Of a stretch of 64,000 bases of DNA, positions 59,001-64,000 are shown piece by piece. The position numbers are program-made. Location of the stretch: assembly GCF_003018235.1 (NCBI RefSeq), contig NZ_CP027437.1. One strand, given 5' to 3'. Source of the stretch: Escherichia coli. Lineage in GTDB: Bacteria; Pseudomonadota; Gammaproteobacteria; Enterobacterales; Enterobacteriaceae. Within the stretch, counting starts at the first letter, position 1. Each line of letters starts with the position of its first letter.

Positions 59001-62000
59001 GGAACGCCATTCAGCCTGGCTTACAGCCCGGCCCATGCATCAGTCCCGGCAGCGGTGGCGGATACGCTGGTGCTGACGGATGTTTCTGTGACCAGTGGAA
59101 CCTACGGCGTTGAAGTTGAAAGCCTGAGTGTGACGGTGAACGGGGCTGAGGCAGCGGCGTGAGGATAAAAAAATGCCGCCGGGGAAGGAGCAAGACAGCC
59201 AGAACCCGGCGGCACGGTCATAAAACCGGGAAATTAAGTCAGACTAATATGCGTGAGTTTTTTAATCTGAAGACTCATAACGGTCAATAACGGGTGTGAA
59301 CAATGACATTTATACAGCTGATACTGCTATATTTCTGCACGGTGGTCTGTGCGTTATATCTGGTGAGCGGTGGTTATAAAGCCATCAGAAATTATGTCCG
59401 CCGAAAAATTGATGATGCAGCGGCTGAGAAGCTCAGCAGAACAACACAGGCTGCCTCATCCACGAACGAACCAACTCTTCCACAGTAACGTCTCTCAGCG
59501 AGAAAATCCCATGACAGAACTGAACAAACTGGTCACTGCAGATGCAGTGAAGGCCGCACTGCGCTCTGAAGAAGTGCGGGGAAAACTGAAGGAAACCATC
59601 CGTAAAACGTTTGAGGCACAGATTGATGCGGATGTGGAAGCGATACTGGATGAGCTTATCGGGCCTGCGGAAGTGCAGCCGGGAGCGCCGACCGGAGAGG
59701 ATGCGCAGGCGGATGACCCGTCAGCGGAAAACGATGCGGCACAACCGGAACCTGAATCAGGAACCGAAGCTCAACCGGACGCTGCTTCCGGAACAGGAAC
59801 GCAACCGGAGGGTACCCCGGAGCCGGAACCGGCGACGTTGCTGTAACGCCTCATACTCTGGCCACCGGCATACAGCGGTGGCCTTTTGTTATTGTGCGCT
59901 TCCGGAGAGCGGGAGACGGGGATATGTACCAGATGGAAAAAATCACAACAGGGGTGTCATACACCACGTCAGCGGCGGGAACGGGATACTGGTTACTGCA
60001 GCTGCTGGACAGGGTCTCCCCGTCCCAGTGGGCGGCGATAGGCGTGCTGGGGAGTCTGCTGTTTGGTCTGCTGACGTACCTGACGAATCTGTATTTTAAA
60101 ATCAGAGAGGACCGTCGCAAGGCAGCACGGGGAGAGTAAATAATGCACCATGAAGAAATGAGTCAGCGCTTCAGTCGCCTGGAAAATGAAATTGCCGGAC
60201 TGAATAAAAAACTGTCGGCGCTGGTGACTTCTGAAGATGAAAAAAAACGCCGCGATGAACAGGAGGCGGTGTTTTATGATGATTGCATCAAAGTTGCCCG
60301 CAGGGCCTTTGCGAATTTTTTGCAGGAAAAGCTATCACCGACCACATTGTCAGAAAAGTACTCCATTACGGTTAAAAGTGCCGGAGAGGAAGGCAATAAA
60401 CGTTATTTTATTGCGTCTGCACCGGATAAAGACCAGGAACCCCGTCGGCCTTTCAGGGTTTCCTGTGAAGAGGGGGAGTTCGTCGTTTATGAGAACGGAA
60501 AACCTGTCCGGGCATCGCATCATCACTGCCTGAAAATTATTGATCTCGCTATTGGATGCCTGAAAGACGAAAACACCAGGGTTATGAAACGCATTGGCCG
60601 TTGCATGGGGTATCTGCAGGTGGCGGCAGAGATTGAAGCACTTGCCAGTGGTGCTGACAGGGATACCGCGGTGCGGGAGTTCCTTCTTCGCGATTTCAAT
60701 ACCACGCCCTTTAAAAAAGTGCCTTATGACTGGATCCAGCCGGGCCTGACTTATCTTAAAGTGCGTATATAAGCTGGCTCGTTATCTGTTGCCGGTAAAT
60801 CCTGATAAATATCCATGAACGCAAAAATCAGATACGGCCTGTCGGCTGCCGTTCTGGCACTGATTGCCGCAGGGGCTTCTGCGCCTGAAATCCTTGACCA
60901 GTTTCTGGATGAAAAAGAAGGTAACCACACCACGGCATACCGTGATGGCGCGGGTATCTGGACCATCTGCCGTGGTGCCATCATGGTGGATGGTAAGCCT
61001 GTTGTTCCCGGTATGAAACTGTCGGAGGAAAAATGCAACCGTGTGAACGCCATCGAACGGAATAAGGCGCTGGCATGGGTGGAGAAAAACATCAAAGTGC
61101 CGCTGACCGAACCGCAGAAAGCGGGGATTGCGTCATTCTGCCCGTACAACATCGGGCCTTCGAAATGCTTCACCTCAACGTTTTACCGGAGACTGAACGC
61201 CGGAGACCGTAAGGGGGCATGTGCTGAAATCCGTCGGTGGATATATGACGGTGGCAGGGACTGCCGTATCCGCTCAAATAACTGCTACGGTCAGGTATCG
61301 CGGCGTGACCAGGAGAGTGCGCTGGCGTGCTGGGGTATCGACAGATAAGCAGAATATTTTGCTGAAAAATGACGTTGGCCAACGTGAGTGAATAACACGA
61401 AATCCTACGAACTGGAAAAACATAAGTGAATAAAAGTAAAAACCCCGATTGCGCCAACAGTCGGGGTTTTGTGTTTCTGACCTTGAATAAGGCAAGGGAG
61501 AACATGGGGAAGTATAAACGAATTCTGTTGAGGTTGACTATGAAAAACGGCCTTGAACTGAAAGCGCCTGTAACTGATGACATCAGCGCAGCGGTGGCTT
61601 TTGCCATTAAGTGGGTGGCGGTTGGTATCGCTGTGTCTCCAGTGCTGTACGGGCTGGCAAAACTGGTCATTGCGTTGAAATCGTAAACGGGGATTAAGAG
61701 GTAATCATGTCACGCAAACTCATAATGCCGGGGGAAATCCTCTGGGTCATTGTCTGCATTTCATTTTCAGCAACGCTGATTGCTCTTCTTCTTTCCATGG
61801 CATGGATGACGTTGAATTCGGCAGGGCTGGTGGGGTGACAACGATATGAACCGGGCACTGTGTGGCGTGATTATTGTCCTGCTGGTGGCCTGCGGTGCGC
61901 TGTGGCTGGTAACAGACCATTACCGCGATAATGCCATCACTTACAAAGCGCAGCGGGATGATGCCAGGACAAAACTCAGTCAGGCGAACGCAACCATTAC

Positions 62001-64000
62001 TGACATGCAGCAGCGTCAGCGTGATGTTGCTGCACTCGATGCAAAATACACAAAGGAGTTAACCGATGCGAGAGCTGAAAATGAAACTCTGCGCGCTGAT
62101 GTTGCCGCTGGTCGTAAGCGCCTGCAAGTCGCCGCCACCTGTGCAAAGTCAACGACCGAAGCCAGCAGCATGGGCGATGGAGAAAGCCCAAGACTTACAG
62201 CAGATGCTGAACTCAATTATTACCGTCTCCGAAGTGGAATCGACAAGATAACCGCGCAGGTCAACTACCTGCAGGAGTACATCAGGACGCAGTGCTTAAA
62301 ATAATTTTAATTTCACTGAAATTTAATACGTGACTTTCAGGAAAATGCCTCGCAGATGCGGGGCATTTTTGTACAGGTATTTCACCGCGCACCGCAGCGC
62401 ACTCAACCACGTCGAACCAAACCCTTTGGAATGAGCCTTTGAGTAGTCAGTTAGTGCTGGTGAGCCTTGACGGGCTGATCTCCTATGCAGCAAAGGTTCA
62501 TCTCAAAGTAAGGCGAACGCTATGACAAACCAAGATTCTATAGACCTATCTGATCTTCGTGGAATGGTCAGTTTTCCAGACAAAAGGTAATCACCATAGT
62601 CGTATGGCTATGAATCTTGTTGCTGCAGATAAGCATTTTGTGATTGAAGTGGTCAAATCTCTCAAATGCAGTAAAATGCAGTGCGCTATAATTCAATAAC
62701 GGAGGGAGTAAGGAGAAGTCATGAAAGATCAAGATGTTAGGTTCGCGGTGCATCATAAGCTTTTGAAAGAATCGCATTTAGATCCAGACTGCCTTGTGGT
62801 CGATGAATTTTCCATATCCCTTGGCGCCAGTAGAGCAGACATTGCTGTAATAAATGGTGTTATACACGGGTACGAGCTCAAAAGTGAATATGACTCTTTG
62901 GAGCGTTTGCCTCTTCAAATCAAGCATTATTCTTCTGTAATGGACAAGGTTACTCTTGTCGTAGCTGAGAAACACCTTGAGGGAGCATTAAAGTTAATCC
63001 CAGGTTGGTGGGGCGTTAAAACGGTTTCTGTTGGGCCAAAAGGCGCCATTCTTATAAAGCACATGCGTGGAGAAAAGCTTAATCGAAACCATGACACATT
63101 GATGCTCGCTCAATTGCTTTGGAAAGATGAATGTATCGACGTACTTGAACGATGGGGCTATTCCAAAGGAATCAAAAGCAAGCCCCGATTTGAGTTATGG
63201 AATATTATTGCGGAAAATATTCCAATAGCGAATCTCAGGCTTGAAGTCAGAACAGCCTTAAAGAAACGCGTAGGCTGGAAAGTTAAGGCTTGGCAGGCTG
63301 AGTCTGCGCCAACCAATAAAGCTGTCTCACGACTAACGTAATATGGTGCGTATGTGCAACTTTACGCCATTCTTTAGAGCCGCCGGATTTGTTAGCGCCT
63401 AATGATCTTTGGTAAATGTAATCATCCCCCCAACTAAATTTGGAGCCAAAGACTTGATACTCTGGCGAACTAACAAGGGTAGTACATAAGTTTTTAGTTT
63501 GGCCCCATCCATTTCCTTTAACTGCGGTACCTTTTACAAAGATCCATGAGGTATCGTTCGAATATCTCACTGAGACATACTGAGACATGAAGCGTGGGTC
63601 TACGCTCGTAATGGTAGAGCTAGCGGTGGGATAATCACTAAAACTTGGCGTTCTTCCATTGCTAAAATTCTGTACTACGTACATCCAAAGATCGTATTCA
63701 TGGCGCGGAATATGATGAACTTGATGTTGCGGTATCCCTGCCTGTGATGCCGGGTATGCGGTTGAAGATAAAATCAAGTTTCTCCACGGAGCTTGGCCTG
63801 ATAATGTGTTGACCATGCTTAATGCTTGTTGTTTTAAACTATCAGTTGCGTTTTGAATATCTCCAAAATCAATGATTACATCAATTAAACTAGGATGAAT
63901 ATTTAAGTGGTTAACCAGACTTGTGAATTGGTGCCATGTCTGGGGGGTGATAGATATAGCGAGCCCATTGATTAAGTTGCGTTGAACAGCATGTATATAG

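Follow-up and report, generated by a model that had tools for sequence, protein, structure and literature searches.

We analyzed the lysis region of a lambdoid prophage carried on a 64,000-nucleotide stretch of Escherichia coli DNA (contig NZ_CP027437.1, assembly GCF_003018235.1; this whole stretch is referred to as the window). An initial annotation of the window had described a lysis cassette in which a 209-residue open reading frame (ORF) separates the holin gene S from the endolysin gene R, and a hairpin and two small hydrophobic ORFs separate R from the spanin gene Rz. All of these features were recovered in place. The three accessory reading frames are here called ORF209, ORF60 and ORF43 after the lengths of their products, and the region is laid out as follows.

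59924–60139, + strand: holin S, a class II pinholin of the S21 type, 71 amino acids, with the dual start Met1/Met4 (MYQMEK).
60143–60772, + strand: ORF209, 209 amino acids, with its ATG 3 nucleotides past the holin stop codon and its Shine-Dalgarno sequence GGGGAGAG within the last holin codons.
60815–61348, + strand: R, a signal-anchor-release (SAR) endolysin, R21/RrrD-like GH24 lysozyme of 177 amino acids (PHROG 7 at 9.5e-62).
61349–61438, + strand: conserved non-coding leader of about 90 nucleotides, found in 325 phage records including that of phage 933W.
61439–61478, no strand assigned: intrinsic-terminator hairpin, with a stem of 13 pairs at 61439–61470 and a T-run to about 61478.
61471–61503, + strand: 5' untranslated region (UTR) of ORF60, with a predicted second hairpin in which the Shine-Dalgarno sequence GGGAG is paired with an upstream UUUCU.
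61504–61686, + strand: ORF60, a small tail-anchored membrane protein of 60 amino acids (PHROG 1115 at 7e-40).
61707–61838, + strand: ORF43, a small single-pass membrane protein of 43 amino acids, ending 7 nucleotides before the Rz ATG (PHROG 4906 at 1e-11).
61846–62304, + strand: Rz, the i-spanin (PHROG 13 at 1.5e-71), with an N-terminal transmembrane segment at residues 1–26.
62066–62251, + strand: Rz1, the o-spanin lipoprotein, encoded within Rz in the +1 frame (PHROG 3198 at 1.8e-30; lipobox VVSAC).

The data are best explained if the region is a standard late-operon lysis cassette of an Stx2j-type (Stx, Shiga toxin) lambdoid prophage, made up of an S21-type pinholin, a SAR endolysin and Rz/Rz1, with the extra genes in the two hypervariable accessory slots normal for this cassette type; we place the probability of this reading at roughly 75%. 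Over positions 55850–64000 the window shares at least 99.95% identity with a prophage in the nearest genome, E. coli O158:H23 strain CFIAFB20140388, the only differences being three mismatches and an IS200C insertion. In that prophage the holin is preceded by stx2j and by genes for a SASA-family esterase of the NanS-p type, a DUF1378 protein and a DUF826 protein, and terminase genes lie on the downstream side.

The core lysis genes could each be assigned from their sequences. The holin matched PHROG 9876 (8e-40) and PHROG 20 (2.5e-33) and was 100% identical by tblastn to the holin in the two nearest genomes, which RefSeq names 'class II holin family protein' (WP_087906417.1). It contains a strongly hydrophobic segment at residues 36–56 and a weakly hydrophobic, Gly/Ala/Ser/Thr-rich N-terminal segment at about residues 8–27, and its dN/dS was 0.09. 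Family homology, a length of about 70 residues, two transmembrane segments and the dual start together identify it as a class II pinholin. The dual start Met1/Met4 of S21-type holins yields an antiholin as well as a holin, and this holin therefore brings its own antiholin. The endolysin matched Protein Data Bank (PDB) entries 3HDE ('Lysozyme', 1.4e-18), which we take to be R21 of phage 21, and 4ZPU (RrrD, 2.8e-18). A catalytic triad E35-x8-D44-x5-T50 is visible in its sequence, as is a weakly hydrophobic SAR segment at residues 9–27 (LSAAVLALIAAGASAPEIL, hydropathy 1.78), and its dN/dS was 0.08; homology, triad and N-terminal segment point to a SAR endolysin. Rz and Rz1 have the features of a two-component embedded spanin of the lambda type. 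Apart from the relationship of the endolysins, the window resembles the S21/R21 cassette of phage 21 in the length, dual start and conserved C-terminus of S. The mechanism expected here is the established one, in which small heptameric pinholes would depolarize the membrane and thereby release the SAR endolysin; we know of no accessory genes described for the phage 21 cassette. Pairing of a pinholin with a SAR endolysin is the lysis system of almost all Stx phages (PMC8136144, PMC10462455).

We propose that a single late transcript, made after induction, would serve the whole series from S through ORF209, R and the small ORFs to Rz/Rz1. In the lysogen, transcripts lacking antitermination would end at the 61439–61470 hairpin, so that in the absence of Q the terminator would insulate the small ORFs and Rz/Rz1. 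Q-dependent read-through is established behavior of lambdoid late operons; during lytic growth the Q-modified RNA polymerase would pass the terminator, and the small proteins and Rz/Rz1 would thus be made late. The S–R slot holds ORF209, and the R–Rz slot a mini-cassette consisting of the terminator, the Shine-Dalgarno-pairing hairpin, ORF60 and ORF43, the last abutting Rz. A consensus scan, which is weak evidence taken alone, found no promoter-like site on the + strand ahead of ORF209, ORF60 or ORF43. The suggestion that these genes are morons co-transcribed with the late region thus holds in part: they are accessory, non-core genes of the late operon, but no autonomous promoter–ORF–terminator unit was found, the terminator being located upstream of ORF60 instead of downstream.

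We determined how often the two slots are occupied in related phages. The sample consisted of 80 IMG/VR viral contigs with an R at least 90% identical to that of the window; they are the top-ranking ones among at least 598 matches. Cassette parts were placed on these contigs by tblastn, which gave 75 informative loci for the S–R slot and 73 for the R–Rz slot, occupied as follows.

S–R slot, S and R adjacent: 14/75 loci.
S–R slot, DUF1327 (YdfR-type) gene: 53/75 loci.
S–R slot, ORF209-type C-terminal domain: 16/75 loci.
S–R slot, ORF209-type without DUF1327: 6/75 loci.
R–Rz slot, R and Rz adjacent: 1/73 loci.
R–Rz slot, ORF60 and ORF43: 23/73 loci.
R–Rz slot, ant and ORF43: 22/73 loci.
R–Rz slot, ORF43, then a truncated ORF60 and additional small ORFs: 7/73 loci.
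R–Rz slot, another kind of small membrane ORF, about 45 amino acids long: 15/73 loci.
R–Rz slot, ORF60 alone or ORF43 alone: 5/73 loci.

A gene thus lies between S and R in 61 of the 75 relatives, and the R–Rz interval is non-empty in 72 of the 73. The initial annotation had taken adjacency of holin and endolysin as the usual state and this cassette as interrupted. For this cassette type the premise is false, and the interruption is not unusual; the Qin prophage of E. coli K-12 and prophage Sp12 of O157:H7 strain Sakai are built alike. In three of the IMG/VR loci (L016, L019 and L071) an ORF209-type gene is followed by about 450 additional nucleotides before R, indicating that the S–R slot is able to hold two genes.

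Comparison with characterized cassettes supports this picture. The Qin arrangement essQ-ydfR-rrrQ-rzpQ/rzoQ combines, like the window, a class II holin and a SAR lysozyme with a non-lysis gene between them; the ydfR product differs in consisting of DUF1327 only (103 residues), in place of which ORF209 has a coiled coil and an orphan C-terminal domain, although K-12 YdfR and ORF209 have in common a segment '...LSEK...YS(I/F)...'. Sakai Sp12 (ECs_2261-2260-2259-2258-5732-2256/2257) encodes in order a holin, ECs_2260, an endolysin, an antirepressor, ECs_5732 and Rz/Rz1. This is the same cassette type, with a gene in the S–R slot and an insert plus a 48-residue ORF between lysozyme and Rz, but it carries ant in place of the window's ORF60, and its S–R gene encodes 114 residues. 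Phage 933W has the order S-R-ant-Rz/Rz1, with a holin and an R that are 96% and 91% identical in protein sequence to those of the window. It has the same leader after R and an ORF43 homologue directly upstream of Rz, and it differs in that S and R are adjacent and ant stands where the window has the terminator–ORF60 unit. A survey of 279 Stx phages found Ant in 126 (PMC8136144).

The accessory reading frames are real genes rather than chance ORFs, because their frames are kept open over many loci and their dN/dS values, from 0.19 to 0.52, lie below 1. All three are conserved, annotated components of related phages, an outcome that the initial annotation had itself named as counting against its reading. 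They are members of widespread families that have already been catalogued, ORF209 as a domain-loss member of its family and ORF60 and ORF43 within existing PHROGs; the layout of the region is ordinary. None of the three matched an NCBIfam model or a PADLOC anti-phage defence model, and our literature searches found no functional study of S–R or R–Rz accessory genes.

The N-terminus of ORF60 is basic, and its transmembrane segment, at about residues 33–58, is C-terminal. An alternative 48-residue form begins at the ATG at 61540, the start chosen by many gene callers. Homologues of ORF60 were found in 122 database clusters (E ≤ 0.001); every one is labelled 'hypothetical', and nearly all bear the names of E. 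coli, E. marmotae or Salmonella. The dN/dS of ORF60 was 0.19. A homologue of ORF43 lies directly upstream of Rz in 53 of the 73 related loci, and its dN/dS was 0.44 (59 ungapped full-length copies, from the window and all fetched loci). The 933W record (AF125520) contains at positions 27420–27569, between ant and Rz, an unannotated membrane ORF of 44–49 residues (...ISDKLITLVKSLCVLVGISFLVMLVAIFFSTAWRVLTLSGLVG) that is an ORF43 homologue; in Sakai Sp12 the 48-residue hypothetical ECs_5732 lies between the antirepressor and Rz and is likened to ORF43 by position alone. The small ORFs of the R–Rz slot all encode single-pass membrane proteins and recombine freely. Neither ORF60 nor ORF43, each with its single transmembrane segment, showed homology to antiholins, and neither had a Pfam match even at E ≤ 10, DUF2730 of the Mu-type releasin included.

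The non-coding sequence between R and ORF60 has a structure of its own. Divergence between cassette types starts at the 3' end of the leader, and in the non-ant types the terminator hairpin sits just after it. For the 86-nucleotide stretch containing both the terminator and the second hairpin, the predicted folding energy is –29.4 kcal/mol (z = –3.5). As the sixth pair of the terminator stem the window has A-T, O170:H18 has T-A and PhiR5_2 has T.G, and the G.U wobbles fall on the + strand. These compensatory changes and the placement of the wobbles argue that the hairpin is maintained by selection and acts on late transcription at the very least; with an A-run on one side and a T-run on the other it is potentially a bidirectional terminator. 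Three UTR variants were found in related loci, each forming a short second hairpin at this place; the Shine-Dalgarno sequence is paired with UUUC(C)U in two of them and lies in the loop in the third. From these predicted folds we infer a regulatory role for the UTR hairpin, which would damp the translation of ORF60.

The same arrangement was found outside the lysis genes. In phage Rac-SA53 (KU052037; locus L089, 1800–2011) the same terminator and 5' UTR that the window has precede a membrane ORF of 45 residues (rac58) that belongs to a second kind of small ORF, here called type B, and this unit lies between a baseplate gene and a gene without annotated function. This same combination of terminator, UTR and small membrane ORF also precedes Rz in Salmonella phage SPN3UB. 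The location in Rac-SA53, between genes outside a lysis cassette, marks the unit as portable and not tied to lysis genes; for its first ORF at any rate, this speaks against a role in lysis being obligatory. We also considered whether the leader and hairpin correspond to the known small RNA HnrS/EcOnc10 of enterohaemorrhagic E. coli prophages, and rejected this, HnrS/EcOnc10 being located downstream of Rz in Sakai Sp12.

A different view of the R–Rz slot is that ORF60 and/or ORF43 are lysis modulators. In the inner membrane their target would be the pinholin, the SAR domain of R (in the manner of a releasin) or the transmembrane segment of Rz, and they would tune lysis timing and with it the release of Stx. 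We consider this view possible but rather unlikely. In its favor, both proteins are single-pass membrane proteins under purifying selection, the small-ORF slot lies within the lysis cassette and is filled in nearly all relatives, ORF43 holds its place directly upstream of Rz in most loci and in 933W, and the Shine-Dalgarno-pairing hairpin suggests dosage control. There is also precedent in the Mu releasin, a small membrane regulator of a SAR endolysin (PMC9239132). Mu gp25 (DUF2730), T4 RI and P1 LydB are small membrane-tethered proteins, encoded beside a SAR endolysin gene, that are able to set the release of the endolysin, and by analogy ORF60 and ORF43 could act in a similar way. There is, however, no sequence similarity to these proteins or to any known antiholin or releasin family, and ORF60 is tail-anchored, unlike the three examples. 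The content of the slot is moreover interchangeable (ant, type A or type B, with one to four ORFs), the unit occurs in Rac-SA53 away from lysis genes, and the dN/dS of ORF43 is relaxed.

We examined a second alternative, according to which terminator, UTR and small ORF form a module resembling a type I toxin or sar system, in which a cis-antisense RNA of about 70 nucleotides represses a membrane-active peptide. The antisense RNA would start on the minus strand within the 5' end of the ORF, cover the ribosome-binding site and end at the bidirectional hairpin. A minus-strand promoter-like site, TAGTCA-18 nucleotides-TATACT, is found at 61540–61511, and the unrelated type-B ORFs, counted from their start codons, likewise have a –10-like hexamer at +8 to +13, which in their case is of the extended TGn kind (TGCTAAAAT). 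The hairpin is bordered by A- and T-runs, the predicted 71-nucleotide antisense RNA would fold into two stem-loops (–22.8 kcal/mol, z = –3.2), and the Rfam model of P22 sar (RF00262) matched the minus strand at 29.4 bits (E = 0.0005 within 401 nucleotides). The geometry is reminiscent of sar in the immI region of P22, an RNA of about 70 nucleotides that is antisense to a ribosome-binding site and ends in a hairpin, with a similar terminator loop, and its place is the slot taken up by ant in 933W. The sar score nevertheless falls short of the gathering threshold of 43 and was not reproduced when five related loci with the same hairpin and two ant-type loci were searched. The G.U wobbles of the stem favor the + strand, the promoter matches are weak (9/12), and promoter-like sites were no commoner than in shuffled sequence. 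Synonymous variable sites at the 5' end of ORF60 (5/60, compared with 20/120 in the rest) gave a weak trend towards conservation, and of the Hfq-bound small RNAs EcOnc01–33 of a published Sakai table that continues beyond these, none maps to the R–Rz interval of Sp12, the one interval checked. Overall we regard an antisense module as unlikely. The Rfam sar and rimP matches at the hairpin, being below threshold and absent from the other loci, were taken to be driven by the terminator itself.

ORF209, in the S–R slot, matched PHROG 1085 at 8.5e-79, the match covering only positions 117–296 of the 296 in the profile. A Pfam scan of ORF209 gave nothing significant, DUF1327 (PF07041) included, an alignment-based Pfam search was also empty, and K-12 YdfR used as a tblastn query had no match in the window. 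The statement that this ORF has no recognizable domain is thus accurate for Pfam and NCBIfam but not for PHROG. Long 'YdfR family' proteins of 268–333 residues with DUF1327 (PHROG 1085; for example P0019 and P0112) occupy the same cassette position, and P0019 is 74% identical over the whole of ORF209. The order of parts in the family is DUF1327, a linker, a coiled coil, a variable middle and a strongly conserved C-terminal domain of about 110 residues with the motifs HxH/HRD, GRCMGYLQVAAEIEA, DNPPFK and W..PG..YLK.R. Residues His128, Gly152-Arg153, Gln159, Pro189, Lys191, Trp197 and Pro200-Gly201 of this domain are invariant between ORF209 and the long proteins. We therefore read ORF209, on homology, as a long YdfR-family protein without its N-terminal DUF1327, in which the coiled coil and the orphan C-terminal domain remain. 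Pfam does not cover this domain, and the modular description of the YdfR-family slot is a useful by-product of the analysis.

The family is narrowly distributed. An exhaustive HMMER scan of 1.84 billion representative proteins returned 38 clusters only, and the family was confined to Escherichia, Shigella and Salmonella. Homologues of ORF209 with an organism name in the source are all from E. coli or Shigella; diverged members of the family, placed in Salmonella by matches in the AlphaFold database, keep the order of parts. The form without DUF1327, of 209–213 residues, has a conserved N-terminus of its own (MNHEEMNQRFSRLENE...), starts right behind the holin stop codon and recurs across hundreds of contigs, among them 203 with P0033 and 100 with P0043. 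The dN/dS of ORF209 was 0.37 in the N-terminal part and 0.24 in the C-terminal domain, and 0.52 in the middle segment, the last value coming from two distinct DNAs only. The C-terminal domain was modelled as a three-stranded meander with four helices at a predicted local distance difference test (pLDDT) score of 82.

ORF209 is a soluble protein with no transmembrane, signal or other hydrophobic segment (hydropathy over 19 residues at most 0.79), and without a membrane segment the antiholin-like role that had been suggested for it is not supported. It appears dispensable for lysis, because 933W and the 14 S–R-adjacent relatives have no gene at all in this slot. Its position relative to the holin makes translational coupling to the holin probable. 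K-12 YdfR binds the catalytic half of RNase E through residues 1–72, its DUF1327 part, and may bind RNA (PMC13232886). This is the sole functional clue for the family, and by homology the RNase E-binding region is precisely the part missing from ORF209. Most likely, ORF209 is a late-expressed accessory factor whose target is a cytoplasmic partner and not the holin.

That ORF209 is instead a decaying, functionless remnant of a longer DUF1327-containing YdfR-family gene we consider very improbable: it does lack the N-terminal domain of its 268–333-residue relatives, the S–R slot is rich in truncated or mosaic versions (the 103-residue K-12 YdfR, two partial pseudogenes in O170:H18), and the identical ORF of the nearest genome carries the label 'frameshifted' from the NCBI Prokaryotic Genome Annotation Pipeline (PGAP), but the form without DUF1327 has its own conserved N-terminus and start and is widespread on contigs, and ORF209 is under purifying selection and collinear with its homologues over the full length in an unbroken frame. 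The labelled copy, in NZ_CP076709, is a 'frameshifted' pseudogene in the annotation, and yet its DNA is identical to the window and its frame intact; given the full-length collinearity without a frame break, we regard the flag as an annotation artefact.

A potential concern with the reading of the region as a standard cassette with two accessory slots is that several observations weigh against parts of it. The census fractions are rough and indicative only, because the sample was confined to the top 80 matches out of 598 or more and included many near-duplicate E. coli isolates. ORF43 is kept just upstream of Rz in most Stx phages and could be a lysis component rather than a passenger. No canonical Shine-Dalgarno sequence was found before the R ATG (60773–60817, ...CCTGATAAATATCCATG). 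Wherever R directly adjoins S, it presumably relies on the GGGGAGAG of the last holin codons; here ORF209 takes that sequence and R has no obvious one of its own, so the ORF209 insertion may alter, and ORF209 may thereby influence, the translation of R. The proposal of a cytoplasmic partner for ORF209 draws solely on the absence of membrane and signal segments and on the family link to DUF1327, which is lost here. The model of full-length ORF209 was poor (pLDDT 46), structure searches with the C-terminal domain gave no informative fold relative, and a hidden Markov model of this domain searched against PDB sequences found nothing below E = 0.09.

The flanks of the cassette contain further features, listed here with the genes that follow Rz/Rz1.

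59303–59488 and 59511–59846: small genes for a DUF1378 protein (membrane) and a DUF826 protein (acidic, with a Pro/Glu-rich tail), between the NanS-p-type esterase gene and the holin.
59860–59883, + strand: terminator-like GC hairpin and T-run directly upstream of the holin, with 8 pairs, 7 of them GC, and the tail TTTTGTTATT.
62721–63341, + strand: first gene of a convergent pair between Rz/Rz1 and the terminase genes, 'sce7726 family protein' in RefSeq.
63283 to beyond 64000, – strand: second gene of the pair, 'beta family protein' in RefSeq.

The DUF1378 and DUF826 genes are further uncharacterized passengers of the late region. The Q-modified RNA polymerase would be expected to pass through the 59860–59883 hairpin as well. 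In NZ_CP076709, the nearest relative, a copy of IS200C lies about 35 nucleotides upstream of the holin start, corresponding to window position ~59885–59890; in the locus taken from that record (L001), the insertion and the flagged copy of ORF209 are recorded at 4185–4643 and 5005–5611. The convergent pair occupies the site at which lambda and 933W carry bor. Its first gene matched the PADLOC model 'cll' (4e-31), and its second matched PD-Lambda-2_C (7.5e-32) and 'beta' (4e-10), and from these matches the pair is probably a prophage-borne anti-phage defence unit.

As a by-product of this analysis, a membrane ORF of 43–49 residues upstream of Rz was found to be kept across Stx phages while being unannotated in the 933W reference record, and the idea was raised that small ORFs in this position are held at low dosage by RNA structure. 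More speculatively, and in our estimation rather doubtfully, the R–Rz interval of most Stx and related lambdoid prophages, 933W among them, may carry an undescribed, dosage-controlled set made up of the terminator, the Shine-Dalgarno-pairing hairpin, perhaps a cis-antisense RNA, and single-pass inner-membrane proteins of 43–60 residues, with ORF43 kept next to Rz. These proteins might tune when pinholin and SAR endolysin bring about lysis, and with it the release of Stx. Separately, the C-terminal domain of ORF209 might be the effector portion of a late phage factor that is directed to RNase E by its DUF1327 half. The timing of lysis sets the output of Shiga toxin and of phage particles from an induced cell of Shiga toxin-producing E. 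coli, and unrecognized regulators within the cassette would therefore be medically relevant. The residual interest of the region accordingly lies with the small membrane proteins encoded upstream of Rz, which possibly modulate lysis and the release of Stx.

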